Origin: Candidatus Omnitrophota bacterium
GTDB taxonomy: Bacteria > Omnitrophota > Gorgyraeia > Gygaellales > Profunditerraquicolaceae
DNA length: 64,000 nucleotides
Reading direction: 5' to 3'
Assembly (NCBI GenBank): GCA_026387355.1
Contig: JAPLLW010000015.1
Coordinates: forward strand, 27,569 to 91,568
Position numbers: made by a program. Positions within the stretch are counted from its first letter, which is position 1, and the number at the start of each line of letters is the position of its first letter. This document shows, piece after piece, positions 9,001 through 15,000 of the stretch.

Positions 9001-12000
9001 AATAGCGTTGAGTTTAAGAGCCGAAAAATAATTATAGATAGTTCCTTTCTTAGAATATTTTGTACCGTATGTTTTTTTACCGCGCTGATATCTGCAGTTA
9101 AGATATTACCGTTCTTGCAGTTATTGTCTTTAAACAATAGAATTAGCGGCCTCAGCTATTTAAATGCTGTCTCAGATGCTAATACTCTAAGTCTGTTTTT
9201 TAGGAGGCTTTTAGTTCCTGAAAGCTTGGGGCCAGGGACAATGTACTTGGGTTTATTACCTGTAACGCTTTTTTTATTTGCCTGCTTAGTTTATTTGCGT
9301 CAACTGAGAGGCTATATAATAATTTTAACAGCATTTATTATTCTCTCTTTTGGTCCGAATAGCTTTGTTGATTTACATAGGTTGTTGTGGAATTTACCAA
9401 TCTTTAATTCCCTCAAAGAGATTTCTAAGTACTATTCTATAATCATTGTTTTCTTAGTAGCATTAATAAGCGGAAGAATATTTGCAAAGTTTACCAATCT
9501 AAAGCTTAAACCGCTCTCGGTTATGTTACCGGCGGTTATTATCATATTCACTTATCTAAATTTATTCAATTCGAATATAGGTTATTTTAGTTCATTTAAT
9601 ACTAGGCTGAATTATAGCCCGGTAGCAGGAGAGACTTTTCAAGTAAAAGGATTTAATATCCATCATGGGGATGAATCAATTTCAGAAGCTTTATTTTATT
9701 TCTTGGCAAAGAAAAATGTTGGTTTCATGAATTTCGAGTTTTATTTGAAACTAAAATCTAGCGTTGCGCCAAGATATTACTTATTGCCAAAATATGCTTT
9801 CTTGATGCCGTATTCTTCTTTATTTGTTTTGCCCAATCCTTATTATAAAGGGGAGGTTTTCTTCTTGAGTAACAATAATGATGCTAGACTAATAAATATT
9901 TCTCCAAACCTGATCTCGGTTAAGATTAATACCTTAAATCCAGATAGATTGGTAATTAACCAGAACTTTGATCGAGATTGGAATTCAAATAAAGGCAAGA
10001 TAGAGGGTTATAATGGTTTACTTTCTGTAAGGCTTAACAAGGGAGAGACTGGCTTGCTGCGTCTCACGTATTTTCCTAAGCTTTTATTTTTGGGCTTGTT
10101 GATAAGTCTGGTATCTCTTGTCGCGAGTTTTTTTGTACTGTTTAAAAAGGAGGCCTAAACAATGCACATTAGATTTGTCCATACGGAGTTTGATGCTTTA
10201 GGAATTGAGCATCTTTCTGCCGTGTTAAAACAAGCCGGGCATTCAACGGATTTGTTCTTTAGCTTTCAGCGAGGGTATAAATGGATCAGTAAAATATTGA
10301 AGAATAGCCCCGATCTTATAGCATTTTCTGTTACGAGCAATAATATAGAATGGGCATATGCAGTAGCAGAGCAAATTAAAAGGCATTCTTGTGTACCGAT
10401 AGTGTTCGGAGGTATTCAGGCCACCCTTATCCCAGAGGCGGTTATTTCAAAAGACTTTGTTGATTTCGTAATCGTCGGTGAAGGTGAATATGCTTTACTG
10501 AATTTAGTAGAGGCTATAAGAAAAGGTGATTCTTTCAGTAGTATAAATAGTCTTTATTTTAAAATCAAAGGGAAATTGTTTAAGAACCCATTGAGCGGGC
10601 CAATCAATAATTTAAACGAACTTCCGTTTCCTGATAAAGAGCTATGTCAGGGAAAAGGTATGTTTTCCGACAGGTATTCGATAATTACAGGCAGGGGTTG
10701 CGTGGGCGCTTGTACATATTGTTGCGTGCCTTTTTTAAGGAAAATGTATCAGGGGAAAGGTGAATTCTTAAGGAGGCGTTCACCGGAGAATGTAATAAAA
10801 GAGCTTATTATGGCTAAAAGTAAATACAATATAAAGAGGGTGTTCTTTGAAGACGACCTGTTTACCTATGATAAAAAATGGTTAAGAACTTTTGCTGATT
10901 CTTATAAGCGGGAAATAACGTTACCTTGCATTCTTTGCGCGCATCCTAATTTTCTCGATGAGGAAGTTGTTAACTTATTAAAAAAGATTGATTGTAAAAT
11001 AGTTGAAATCGGAGTGCAGAGTTTAAATGAGGAGATACGCTTAAATATCCTTAAAAGAAATTATACAAATGAGAATTTAAGCAAAGCCTTAAGGCTCCTT
11101 AGGGATAATAATATTTGTTCTATCGCGGATAATATTGTAGGTCTTCCTGGTGAGGAAAAGGAAGATATCCTAAAAATGGTTAGATTTTATAATGAAATCA
11201 GGCCGGGTAAAGTTGATATCTTTTATCTTAAATATTATCCCGGGCTAGAGATAACAAAGAAAAGCAATTTGGATCCAGCTATGGTTGAAGCGATAAGCAG
11301 AGGGGAGATTTCCCAACTACCTATTGTTGAAAGCGATCAGAATTTATATAACTCTAAACTGATAAATAGGCTTCTTTTAGTAGTAAGCCTAATGTATGTA
11401 TTGCCCAAAAAGGTTATTAATTTTATACTCGATAAAAATCTGTATAATTTTATGCCGCATTTTAAGAGTTGCTATCATATTAATGAGGTCGCATTTTACT
11501 GCTCCTTGATTTTTAGGCGTAGATTCCATGGCGCATTTATTTCCCTAAGGGGAAATCTTCGCAATAATGCCAAATTTTTTATTAAACAGTTTCTAGGTTA
11601 AGGCGCATAAAACTTAATGGAAAAAAATAAGGATATTTTTAGGGCGACAAGAAGTATTTGTCCTTTATGTTGTAATACAGTTAAAAGTGTAATCATAGAA
11701 GAAGACGGTAAGGTTTTTCTTCGGAAGAATTGTCCCTCCTGTGGCATCTCCAATCTGTTGCTATCCAAATCGCCGGCATACTATAGGGAACTTGATTTAT
11801 TATATTTTAATATAATGAATCAAGACCGGGATTTACCGGAAACAGAAGTATACCTTACCTATCGATGCAATATGAAGTGTCCGATTTGTTATTTGGAGAT
11901 AAGTAATCAAGATTTACAATGCAAAGAGCCGACCTGCGATGATATTGAAAGCTATATAAAAAATAGTAGTAAGACTTTTTTTATTCTCACCGGGGGTGAG

Positions 12001-15000
12001 CCGACATGTAGAGATGATTTGGCGGATATCATCAAGCTTTTTAAAAAGCATTCCAGGTCAGTAAGTATAAATACAAATGGTATCCGTTTAGCCGATAAAG
12101 GCTATTTATCTGCTTTAATAGATGCTGGCTTAGACAGAGTAAATCTACAGTTAGATTCTTTTGATCCGGAAATCGAAAAAGAATTACGCGGACACAATTA
12201 TCTAGAAGCTAAAATGAAGGCTATCAATAATCTACGCGATCTAGGAGTTCCTACCGGAATTAATTGTGTCGTGGTAAAAGGAATTAATGATAAAAAACTT
12301 GGAGAGATGGCTAATTTTGTTGCCAAGAACCACTTTATTAAAGCTATTAATTTCTTAGCAATAGCTTTTATCGGTAGCGCAAGAAATAACAAATTAGATA
12401 ATTATATAATGCCGGATGAATTGGTTGATTTATTGGATAAGCAGACAGAAGGTTTGATTTCCAGAGAACAGGTATTTCTTTTTCAAAAGCTTCATTTAAC
12501 CATCAAATCTTTTTTCTCACAAAGGTTCTGTTTTTACTCGCAATCCTATGTGGCAGTTAGAACAAAAAGTGGCTACGAGCCTTTAGGTAATTTTCTAAAT
12601 TTCAATAAGATGGAGAGTTGTCTTTTTAGCTATCGTAAAATTTATAATAAGAATAAGCTATTTTCAGCCTTTTTTTTATCTGCGGCAATAGCCAGCCTGT
12701 TTTTAAGATTAAGGTCAGTTGTTATTATGAAAGAGATTTTTCTCATGGGGATATCTTATTTCTTTAAATCGCCGGCTTATTTAAAAAGCTCAAGATTTTT
12801 CTACATAAATTTTACAACCGGCTGTGACAGGTATAAAAAAGATTACTCGATAGCAAGAAACTGCCATAGCGAAGTAGCATGTTTTGATAGGAAGAGCGGG
12901 GCAATAAGCCATATGGGTAGAGCAACAGATTTTTATTTAAATCGTGAAGTTGATTTATCGTTAGAAAGTAAGTAAAGGCTTATGGATATCAATACGGGTC
13001 GTGTGGGTAAAACATTGGCAAAAACAATAAGCTTGTGCCCAGCTTGCTTAAAGAGATTACCAGCTGAGATTATAGAAATAGAGAATAAGATTTACTTGAA
13101 AAGATATTGTATTGAACACGGTGAATACTCGCAAAATATCTCGAATCATCCAACATATTATAAAGGGTTAAGAGACTACTATTTCAACGTTATTTCCGAT
13201 AATTTTAAACAAATTCGCTACCTCCTTTTTATCACTGGTAAATGCAACCTTGCCTGTCCGGTATGTTTTTACGGAGAAGGTGATTTTAATGAGATGCTTC
13301 TTTCAGATGTAGAAGCGATTGCCAGAAGGCATAAGGGGGCCGAGATGGTTATTTTCGGCAAAGAACCTACTTGCCATGAGCAATTGCCAGAAATTGTAAA
13401 ACTGTTGAAAAAAACGCAGAATTCAGCGAGTCTATATACAAACGGGGTAAGAATCGGCGATCGTGATTATTTACGCAAACTAAAGCAGTCGCGCGTTAAC
13501 AAAATATATTTGCAGTTCGATGGATTTAAGGAAGATATCTATAGTAATTTGAGAAATGTGGAGATGTTGGGCGTTAAATTAAAGGCTTTAGATAATTTAA
13601 GGGATGAGAAGCTCAGCACGGTAATCAATATGACCCTTGTAAAAGATAATGAAGAAGAAATTAAAAAGATTATTAATTACGCGGTTAAGAATGATTTCGT
13701 AAAAACAATTAATTTTACCAGCTTTATCCGCTCGGGTTCCGGTAGGAAGTTTCTTCCAGATTGTTCAGTAATGCCAGATGAGGTCATAGATATAATTGAA
13801 AAACAGACAGCTGGTGTTATCGCTCGCGATAATGTCTACTTGTTTCAGAAATTCCTGTATGCTTATATGTCTTTTCTGGGTAAACGTACATGCCTGTACA
13901 TCCAGTATTATTGGATATATCGAACAAAAGACAAATATTTGCCTATAGATAAATTGATAGACTTAAAAGGCATGAATAAAATATTAGACAGGTACGCAGA
14001 GCTTCTTCCGAGAAATGCTGTTTTAGCTAAGTTATATTTAGTTATATTCCTACCGAAGTACATCGTAAATTTTAAATCAATGCACCTAGTGATAGACTTT
14101 CTTAAAACCGTCTGTTCGCATCTCTTAAAATTAGGCGAATATAGTAATATGAGTTCAAAATTCGTTCAATTAATATTTTCTACAGCCTGCGATCCTTACA
14201 AAGCCGATTTTCAGATAGCCAAACGATGCCATATTGGCATAATCTATAAGGATAACCAAGGGGTGATTAGAAAAAATGATGAAAACGGCACCTATCTTTT
14301 AACGAATGAAATTGAAACAGGGGTAAAAAAATAATGAAAGTAGCTTTTGTATATTCTGAGATGGAGGTTTTAGGCATCCAGTATATCTCTAGTTTTATTA
14401 AAAAGGAAGGACATGTAGTTAAGCTGTTTTTTGATCCGCAGCTATTTAATGATACAGTTACCAAAGCAAGGGCTTTGAGCAGGGTATTTGATTTCAAAGA
14501 AAAGTTAATTGAGGAGATAAAAGAGTATGCTCCGGATATTTTGGGATTTTCTGTATTAAGCACAAATTATGCCTGGGCATCTGATTTCAGCAAACGGATA
14601 AAAGATAAAATCGATATTCCGATTGCATTTGGAGGCATTCATCCCACTTCTGTCCCTGAAGAGGTCATAAAGAATAAATTCATTGATTACGTGATAGTGG
14701 GTGAAGGAGAATACGCCTTCGCTGAATTACTGGATACAAAATTGAACAAGAAATATCTAAATAGTATTAAAAATATATGTTACAAGAACAATGGAGATGT
14801 TTATTTTAACCCTTTACGCGAGGCTTTAGCGGATTTAGATAGCCTGCCTTTTCCGGATAAAAACATATTCTACGAAAAGATGCCCTATTTAGGGAAAAGT
14901 TATACGATAGTTACATCCCGCGGTTGCCCTTATAGTTGTACATACTGTTGTAACGGGGTATTGAACAAACTATACGCGGGAAAATATTTACGGCGCCGGT

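Follow-up and report, generated by a model that had tools for sequence, protein, structure and literature searches.

To our knowledge, no enzyme other than the archaeal tetraether synthase, Tes, is known to link two unactivated sp3 lipid-tail carbons via a cluster-bound intermediate. The crystal structure of the family member GDGT-MAS, i.e., MJ0619 (GDGT, glycerol dialkyl glycerol tetraether), contains four metal sites: a rubredoxin-like mononuclear Fe site (C9X2C12X20C33X2H36), an N-terminal auxiliary cluster ([4Fe-4S]N) whose ligands are C73, C77, C80, and a His, the cluster of the radical S-adenosylmethionine (SAM) core, and a C-terminal cluster ([4Fe-4S]C) held by three Cys and a labile Met439 (PMC9433317). 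The rubredoxin-like site is a redox-type iron center at the protein surface, [4Fe-4S]C carries the substrate-sulfur intermediate of C(sp3)-C(sp3) coupling, and the C-terminal helices form lipid pockets (PMC9433317). Another radical SAM enzyme, Mss, which is the membrane-spanning lipid synthase of the bacteria Thermotoga and Thermoanaerobacter, has been proposed to couple two lipid tails in a Tes-like, auxiliary-cluster-dependent manner (PMC13459092) and has been called only remotely related to Tes (PMC13159169). Here, we describe two open reading frames (ORFs) in a 64,000-nucleotide stretch of contig JAPLLW010000015.1 from a Candidatus Omnitrophota bacterium (hereafter, the window). The two proteins, ORF A and ORF B, almost certainly belong to the Tes/GDGT-MAS radical SAM family, and they are not Tes orthologues.

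A preliminary description of this stretch had noted two radical SAM proteins in which an N-terminal Cys4/Cys3His ribbon precedes a CX3CX2C core and a GGEP-like motif, followed by a long helical C-terminal extension free of SPASM cysteines, and it could not place this architecture in a named family. Both ORFs and all of these motifs are present in the sequence (Table 1), with the ribbon reading C15-P-L-C18-C19 ... C39-P-S-C42 (CX2CX20CX2C) in ORF A and C19-P-A-C22 ... C43-I-E-H46 (CX2CX20CX2H) in ORF B, and the GGE-like motif reading G126-G-E-P and G126-K-E-P, respectively. The Pfam models Zn_ribbon_HMPTM (PF23545) and Radical_SAM (PF04055) matched both proteins above their gathering thresholds and in that order. 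Since the PF23545 scores (43.7 bits, E = 1.9e-11 for ORF A; 54.9 bits, E = 6.2e-15 for ORF B) exceed the cutoff of 27, the ribbon is not a chance pattern; PF04055 scored 106 bits for ORF A and 69 bits for ORF B. The SPASM model (PF13186) matched neither ORF, though it did match the neighboring genes at 3778 and 32266. In the AlphaFold2 models (predicted local distance difference test scores of 92.5 for ORF A and 92.1 for ORF B; predicted template modeling score of 0.92), the C-terminal domain is mixed and mostly helical. These results bear out the idea of a distinct radical SAM subfamily that has an N-terminal metal ribbon and lacks SPASM. The two proteins are paralogues (31% identical), and an NCBI entry from a contig of 129.7 kb, titled "radical SAM protein [Candidatus Omnitrophica bacterium]", matches ORF B with 100% identity.

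Profile searches and Foldseek placed both proteins within the Tes/GDGT-MAS architecture. The best NCBIfam model was Tes (NF045702), with 165.6 bits for ORF A and 157.5 bits for ORF B, neither of which reaches the cutoff of 450. The best match in the PDB by sequence was 7TOL (E = 2.5e-36 for ORF A; E = 5.3e-37 over residues 13-418 for ORF B). By structure, 7TOL and 7TOM were the sole full-length Foldseek matches (query-normalized TM-score, TMq, of 0.76-0.81 over 468-500 alignment columns), with 7TOM giving a TMq of 0.81 for ORF A and 0.76 (E = 4e-31) for ORF B; the remaining matches (MoaA, SuiB, viperin, HydE, and others) covered the radical SAM core only (TMq ~0.4). Alignment of the clade profile to canonical Tes using hhalign gave a probability of 100 and E = 1e-62 over 417 columns. 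Pairwise identity to Tes is only 22-29%. Shared features include the radical SAM core with its SAM-binding motifs, the fold of the C-terminal domain, and residues invariant across the clade and Tes, namely the radical SAM cysteines, E128, N154-G155, Q178, D180, and R191. Of the four domains in the overall Tes fold, three have a counterpart here, the [4Fe-4S]N domain being absent. The second-best profile, the TrsS radical SAM (seleno)protein NF045646 of the same superfamily (441 positions), gave 158.5 bits for ORF A and 147.9 for ORF B, far under its cutoff of 490, and matched mainly the radical SAM core. Hence, the architecture is that of an already named family, and the novelty lies at the level of the clade: a minimal Tes, rewired ligands, tandem arrays, coupling to B12-binding radical SAM enzymes, and a surface-glycoconjugate setting.

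The presumed Zn ribbon is the counterpart of the rubredoxin-like site of GDGT-MAS, with identical spacing and the same His in ORF B, and Cys in place of His in ORF A. The preliminary description had suggested that the ribbon docks a partner or carrier protein, and we found no evidence in support of this; because the ligand spacing of ORF B is that of a rubredoxin-like site with a mononuclear Fe in the solved homologue, a redox or structural metal site is better supported than carrier docking. Sequence comparison indicates that the Cys4 ribbon of ORF A arose by a recent replacement of His with Cys, which is rare in the clade: an orthologue of ORF A with 63% identity has CPSH at this position, and of the 123 clade representatives (out of 143) in which the fourth ligand position is occupied, 104 carry His there, 9 Asp, and 3 Cys. 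A B-type orthologue, P0007 (10001-11353 of the related locus L001), has the ribbon CLGC ... CVKD (Cys3-Asp, without Pro), which falls below the Pfam ribbon model.

The Pfam/IMG name of the ribbon domain, HMPTM (7,8-dihydro-6-hydroxymethylpterin dimethyltransferase), which also appears in some JGI annotations of relatives, would make ORF A and ORF B pterin C-methyltransferases. The probability of this is close to negligible. We know of no methanogens among the Omnitrophota, no methanopterin pathway genes lie nearby, and the pterin methylase activity of MJ0619 proved irreproducible, the enzyme having been reassigned as GDGT-MAS (PMC9433317).

ORF A and ORF B are not Tes orthologues, because they score far below the NCBIfam cutoff, lack the N-terminal auxiliary motif, Met439, and the third C-terminal Cys of Tes, and have gained a new Cys and a more hydrophobic helix. 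They are also 40-60 residues shorter than Tes. More specifically, alignments revealed that the [4Fe-4S]N motif GCPxDCGxCxxH, ~20-25 residues between the ribbon and the radical SAM motif, is deleted in both proteins, so that the whole [4Fe-4S]N module (CX3CX2C plus His) is missing. The motif was absent from all 28 locus-derived clade members, 45 A-type database hits, and 143 profile-search representatives, whereas archaeal Tes and every other bacterial homologue in which this region was recovered (Vulcanimicrobiota, Actinomycetota, Bacillota, Synergistia, and Bacteroidota) retain it.

The C-terminal cluster site also appears to have been remodeled. Canonical Tes proteins have three invariant C-terminal cysteines (C347, C453, and C468 in the numbering of P0016), presumably the [4Fe-4S]C ligands. 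According to hhalign, C304 of ORF B corresponds to C347 and C416 to C453, i.e., two of the three positions are shared, whereas C468 (in the PFC motif) has no counterpart. Instead, the clade has a Cys of its own (C403) within the conserved stretch T-[GA]-C-D-P-Y-K-x-D. Where Tes has Met439, the clade has Ser or Thr, and the Tyr459 column holds Tyr in B-type paralogues and Phe in most A-type ones; given that the GDGT-MAS variants M439A and Y459F/L stay active (PMC9433317), these losses are compatible with Tes chemistry. The three cysteines are conserved in all 28 locus-derived members, and among the 143 representatives their columns hold Cys in 97-122 of 122-135 occupied positions (122/135 for the C304 column). 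The conservation pattern thus points to ligands rewired to a putative three-Cys triad, C304/C403/C416 in ORF B and C305/C403/C416 in ORF A. The C-terminal extension is therefore without SPASM, as previously described, but it is not cysteine-free.

In addition, the C-terminal domain of the clade contains a helix that is far more hydrophobic than that of Tes. The median of the maximum 19-residue Kyte-Doolittle hydropathy in this domain is 1.77 in the clade (n = 54) versus 0.91 in canonical Tes types (n = 124), and values of at least 1.6 occur in 72% of clade sequences versus 2% of canonical Tes sequences (Mann-Whitney p = 1.6e-24). On this measure, the clade seems to have gained a membrane-grade hydrophobic helix.

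Canonical bacterial Tes homologues (from Acidobacteriota, Planctomycetota, Actinomycetota, Vulcanimicrobiota, Bacteroidota, and others) resemble the Omnitrophota clade in being bacterial, in their Pfam architecture, and in that their function is a proposed one: they have been put forward as synthases of branched GDGTs (brGDGTs) (PMC8941075; PMC11868695), and tes genes in other bacteria cluster with gms, a lipid-modifying radical SAM gene (PMC11214058). Taken with the homology and fold match to GDGT-MAS, these reports would fit ORF A and ORF B being true Tes equivalents, i.e., housekeeping synthases of membrane-spanning (brGDGT-like or diabolic-acid-like) core lipids in Omnitrophota. We consider this unlikely. 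The scores of 158-166 bits compare with a cutoff of 450, and the [4Fe-4S]N motif, Met439, and the PFC Cys are gone, although nearly all other bacterial Tes homologues examined keep them (one Bacteroidota member lacks the PFC Cys). Moreover, Tes is encoded by a single gene near archaeal lipid genes, whereas the clade occurs as 2-6 divergent tandem paralogues in a bacterial glycan-type cluster, and we found no glycerolipid or ether-lipid genes in the window. Regarding the refuting possibility raised earlier, that the proteins would fall into a characterized family unrelated to glycans, the outcome is mixed: the nearest family performs lipid C-C coupling, but neither ORF passes its membership tests and the genomic context is glycan-type.

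To estimate the size of the clade, we conducted an exhaustive hidden Markov model search over 1.84 billion representatives (threshold E <= 1e-30), which returned 990 proteins. The top 150 all scored at least 224 bits and are ~440 amino acids (aa) long; 143 of them were examined for motifs (the other 7 had already been met in earlier searches) and lack the N-cluster motif. Accordingly, the clade is large, comprising at least 150 clusters at 50% identity. Every named clade member is from Omnitrophota: a scan of GTDB representative genomes with a B-type alignment (at least 40% identity) gave six matches, five titled Omnitrophota and the sixth "uncultured bacterium", and the named A-type matches were all Omnitrophica/Omnitrophota. 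This restriction rests on named NCBI and GTDB matches, as the profile-search representatives carry no taxon names. Some profile-search relatives, also without the N-cluster motif, have additional domains: P0241 and P0260 carry one or two N-terminal hemerythrin domains, and P0310, annotated as a Cu2+-exporting ATPase, combines hemerythrin with a C-terminal P-type ATPase. These hemerythrin-fused relatives may belong to other phyla, and the hemerythrin/ATPase fusions hint at oxygen or metal sensing tied to the scaffold.

Published surveys of Tes homologues have used BLASTP thresholds of E < 1e-50 and identity of >20-30% (PMC8941075; PMC13159169). The canonical bacterial homologues pass such thresholds, whereas the Omnitrophota clade fails; with 25-29% identity and ~105-130 bits to canonical Tes it falls under the cutoffs and has therefore probably gone uncounted. 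Our search of the literature on Omnitrophota radical SAM enzymes or tetraether synthase found no description of the clade or of its gene cluster.

Both ORFs lie within a single plus-strand cluster (window positions 388-37408) that has one opposite-strand gene and 12 radical SAM genes in ~37 kb, a density that is unusually high for a glycan-type cluster. Five of the 12 encode B12-binding radical SAM proteins (388, 10162, 14334, 15815, and 25512), and the others comprise the two Tes-like genes, two SPASM genes (3778 and 32266), and three short ones (23540, 24532, and 27695). The cluster also holds genes for AsnB, two DegT proteins, two GT2 glycosyltransferases, WbqC, PMT_2, a carbamoyltransferase with an SxtJ-like protein, and a MacB-type ABC transporter. 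Upstream of the pair, the order is B12-radical SAM (388), AsnB-type amidotransferase (1753), radical SAM-SPASM (3778), GDSL (4863), TPR (5830), DegT (6435), and two orphans, a 275-aa protein (7536) and a 611-aa membrane protein (8323). The local order is B12-radical SAM (10162), ORF A, ORF B, B12-radical SAM (14334), B12-radical SAM (15815), DegT (17272), GT2 (18537), and a 641-aa membrane protein (19325), and from the 10162 gene to the 17272 gene this same-strand run has gaps or overlaps of only 15, 6, 1, 10, and 4 bp. Further on lie WbqC, PMT_2 (GT-C), two short radical SAM genes, B12-radical SAM, GT2, radical SAM, an EamA half-transporter, and a hydrolase, followed by radical SAM-SPASM, the MacB-type ABC transporter, the carbamoyltransferase, and the SxtJ-like protein.

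In NCBIfam, no family that names a pathway was found for the radical SAM, DegT, or GT2 genes of the cluster. The sole score above a curated cutoff was that of AsnB, on a generic asparagine synthase model. The 611-aa and 641-aa membrane proteins have roughly 10 or more hydrophobic segments each; sequence searches of Pfam (at E up to 10), NCBIfam, and the PDB returned nothing for them, for the 275-aa protein, or for a 564-aa minus-strand ORF. As a guess, the two membrane proteins may be orphan GT-C-like transferases or polymerases. The 564-aa ORF (28781-30475, minus strand) is the sole sizeable minus-strand ORF of the first 37 kb. Across the window (1-64000), GC skew is positive in all 2-kb bins, genes are almost all on the plus strand, and GC content is 32-43%; the uniform skew and near-uniform gene orientation are consistent with the window lying on the leading strand of one replichore.

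The abundance of radical SAM genes, including SPASM and B12 types, is reminiscent of proteusin-type clusters, in which case the Tes-like and B12-radical SAM proteins would cross-link and methylate a ribosomally made, post-translationally modified peptide (RiPP). The AsnB-like protein also scores on lasso-cyclase models, and Foldseek also matched the cores of SuiB and SkfB. A role as RiPP maturases is nonetheless highly unlikely, given that the maturase matches are limited to the shared radical SAM core (TMq ~0.4) and that AsnB best matches amidotransferases of the exopolysaccharide type. We found no plausible precursor ORF in the two gaps examined (1-400 and 30476-30846), there is no room for one near the pair, since the surrounding genes abut or overlap, and the scanned genes contain no protease, RiPP recognition element, or peptide-export signature.

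Comparison with related loci (designated by L numbers) revealed a recurring module. L005, L006, L008, and L010 share the order B-type Tes-like gene, B12-radical SAM, B12-radical SAM, (DegT), GT2, which is directly preceded by a DegT and radical SAM-SPASM pair in L006, L008, and L010 and accompanied by one to four extra A-type paralogues. Most related loci contain radical SAM-SPASM, DegT, a short GT2, and two orphan polytopic membrane proteins. The number of Tes-like genes, which are tandem paralogues, ranges from 2 to 6 per locus: four or five in L002, two in L032 (a complete 3.36-Mb genome), and six in L001 (322-11353), where five are consecutive and the proteins are 30-43% identical to those of the window, the largest array found. 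In L032, which belongs to the genome with the A-type homologue P0099, a gene of the methylthiotransferase type (MiaB-like UPF0004 plus radical SAM; 15547-16881) lies between B12-radical SAM genes. A neighbor-joining tree resolved the B-type orthogroup, which contains ORF B and is present in most related loci, and at least four other orthogroups common to several genomes, which argues for an old, modular expansion.

The minimal version of the cluster, in L033, has eight genes: radical SAM-SPASM, a fusion protein (P0209), a 276-aa protein, a 611-aa protein, a Tes-like protein, B12-radical SAM, GT2, and a 626-aa protein. P0209 (10001-12853; 950 aa) is a natural fusion of a B12-radical SAM protein, 43% identical to the product of the 10162 gene over 497 aa, with a Tes-like domain that is 40% identical to ORF B. 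Collectively, the tight spacing, the synteny in L005, L006, L008, and L010, and the P0209 fusion support a pathway link between the Tes-like and B12-radical SAM enzymes; in the window, ORF A and ORF B share a predicted operon with B12-radical SAM genes and would be cotranscribed with them. The co-occurrence with DegT/GT-C genes that the preliminary description had proposed to look for does recur in related Omnitrophota loci, except that L033, the smallest cluster, has no DegT gene, and amino-sugar chemistry is therefore not obligatory.

Table 1. Positions of the two Tes-like ORFs, their motifs, and neighboring genes in the window (L numbers designate related loci)
Feature	Coordinates	Strand	Remarks
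ORF A	11617..12975	+	452 aa; Tes-like radical SAM, A-type paralogue, Cys4 rubredoxin-like ribbon
ORF A rubredoxin-like/Zn-ribbon motif	11659..11742	+	C15X2C18X20C39X2C42; aligns to GDGT-MAS C9X2C12X20C33X2H36
ORF A radical SAM cluster motif	11866..11889	+	C84X3C88X2C91
ORF A first C-terminal cluster cysteine (predicted), RFC305FY	12523..12537	+	Alignment column of ORF B C304
ORF A clade signature, T-G-C403-D ... N-C416	12817..12864	+	Second and third C-terminal cysteines
ORF B	12982..14334	+	450 aa; Tes-like radical SAM, B-type paralogue, Cys3His ribbon
ORF B rubredoxin-like/Zn-ribbon motif	13036..13119	+	C19X2C22X20C43X2H46; spacing and His as in GDGT-MAS
ORF B radical SAM cluster motif	13243..13266	+	C88X3C92X2C95
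ORF B first C-terminal cluster cysteine (predicted), RTC304LY	13885..13899	+	Aligned to Tes invariant C347 (P0016 numbering), hhalign
ORF B clade signature, T-A-C403-D ... R-C416	14182..14229	+	C416 aligns with Tes C453; C403 three residues past Tes Met439 position
Radical SAM-SPASM	3778..4731	+	Orthologue directly upstream of Tes-like gene in L006, L008, L010, L032, L033
DegT-family sugar aminotransferase	6435..7505	+	PseC/LegC/ArnB-like; paired with radical SAM-SPASM gene in related loci
275-aa protein	7536..8363	+	One hydrophobic N-terminal segment; conserved beside 611-aa membrane protein in L005 and minimal cluster L033
611-aa polytopic membrane protein	8323..10158	+	Conserved in L005 and L033
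B12-binding radical SAM	10162..11601	+	Pfam B12-binding and Radical_SAM; 15 bp upstream of ORF A
B12-binding radical SAM	14334..15824	+	Start overlaps ORF B stop; follows B-type gene in L005, L006, L008, L010; generic class B radical SAM (PDB search)
Second B12-binding radical SAM of recurring module	15815..17275	+	Pfam
Second DegT-family aminotransferase	17272..18528	+	PseC/LegC/ArnB-like
Short GT2 glycosyltransferase	18537..19259	+	Weakly similar to undecaprenyl-phosphate sugar transferases of the ArnC type; conserved across related loci
641-aa polytopic membrane protein	19325..21250	+	Counterparts in L001 (43% identical) and, less well conserved, in L033 (26%)

By analogy with Tes, we tentatively favor, at somewhat less than an even chance, a reading in which the clade forms C-C bonds by radical coupling, the substrate being the lipid-linked precursor of a glycoconjugate that is embedded in the membrane at this stage. 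The enzymes would be monotopic membrane proteins at the cytoplasmic face, and the hydrocarbon part of the lipid-linked precursor (a polyprenyl-phosphate-sugar or an acyl/ether glycolipid being candidates) would enter the C-terminal pocket. The radical SAM cluster would cleave SAM, and the 5'-deoxyadenosyl radical would take a hydrogen from an unactivated carbon. The resulting substrate radical would then be parked on the site-differentiated three-Cys C-terminal [4Fe-4S] cluster, until a second SAM turnover finishes the C-C bond (a cross-link or a ring), in a two-turnover scheme such as that proposed for Tes-type enzymes (PMC9433317; PMC13459092). The neighboring B12-radical SAM enzymes may methylate or cyclize the same scaffold, and the paralogues (2-6 per genome, in at least 5 orthogroups) may differ in position, regiochemistry, or substrate. 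A lipid or membrane substrate is supported by the hydrophobic C-terminal domain, since the counterpart helices of Tes form lipid pockets, and the occurrence of 2-6 paralogues per locus in orthogroups common to genomes fits the pattern of a tailoring toolkit. Mss, compared here by its description only, shares with this proposal the coupling of lipid tails by a radical SAM enzyme with an auxiliary cluster.

Several points weigh against this proposal. For the clade, substrate and product are deduced by analogy, as is the metal content itself, and the spatial closeness of C304, C403, and C416 is a prediction. The loss of [4Fe-4S]N is a further difficulty as regards the electron route from the rubredoxin-like site. 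Furthermore, the context (DegT, GT2, PMT_2, WbqC, AsnB, and carbamoyltransferase) is of the surface-glycan type and contains no recognizable lipid-core biosynthesis gene, and a copy number that varies between genomes fits the tailoring of variable surface antigens better than the synthesis of membrane-core lipids. Lastly, a three-Cys cluster with an open iron also resembles a substrate-binding cluster such as that of MoaA (GTP 3',8-cyclase), whose C-terminal auxiliary [4Fe-4S] cluster has three Cys and an open iron, and the core of ORF A matches MoaA models with E ~1e-31. In contrast to ORF A and ORF B, MoaA has no N-terminal ribbon and a different C-terminal domain; the overlap is confined to the core, and the MoaA equivalog cutoffs were not reached (108 bits versus 325 and 99 versus 284).

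The main alternative is that the enzymes modify the sugar or head group, i.e., the amino-sugar moiety of a nucleotide- or polyprenyl-phosphate-linked precursor, for example by dehydrogenation, deamination, epimerization, C-C branching, or ring contraction. In that case, a polar group on the substrate would bind to the open iron of the three-Cys cluster, as in MoaA, and the hydrophobic helix would merely anchor the protein in the membrane. DesI/DesII and BtrS/BtrN are precedents for aminotransferase and radical SAM pairs that act on sugars or cyclitols, and the module in question recurs alongside DegT, radical SAM-SPASM, and GT2 genes within a 37-kb cluster that is glycan-type as a whole. The conserved C-terminal cysteines number three rather than four, the radical SAM core resembles MoaA, and the paralogue number is variable between genomes, as for surface-antigen tailoring genes. 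On the other hand, the sole characterized relative acts on lipid tails, and the C-terminal fold that forms lipid pockets there has been retained here; the C-terminal domain of the clade has turned more hydrophobic, not less; and the minimal cluster does without DegT. Modification of the sugar or head group is thus possible, though on balance rather doubtful.

Returning to coupling on a lipid-linked precursor, a broader version can be formulated, which is speculative and, in our estimation, rather improbable as a whole. A reduced Tes scaffold, with the rubredoxin-like site, the radical SAM cluster, and a three-Cys cluster but without the N-cluster, would have been recruited and multiplied in Omnitrophota and, with B12-radical SAM partners that are sometimes fused to it, would furnish a lipid-linked surface glycoconjugate with varied C-C cross-links, rings, or methyl branches, each paralogue having its own regiochemistry. 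The resulting radical-tailored glycolipids would form a class not seen before and, if so, the bacterial equivalent, exposed at the surface, of the toolkit with which archaea tailor GDGTs.

The reach of Tes chemistry past archaeal GDGTs bears on which organisms make bacterial membrane-spanning lipids and on brGDGT-based palaeoclimate proxies. Judging from its conserved residues, the Omnitrophota clade represents a natural "minimal Tes", with three predicted metallocofactor sites where Tes has four, without the Met ligand, and with one canonical C-terminal Cys fewer, and it would therefore allow a direct test of the cofactors that the chemistry needs. Finally, arrays of up to six paralogues and up to a dozen radical SAM genes per surface-glycoconjugate cluster suggest unexplored anaerobic tailoring chemistry in the abundant, uncultured phylum Omnitrophota.

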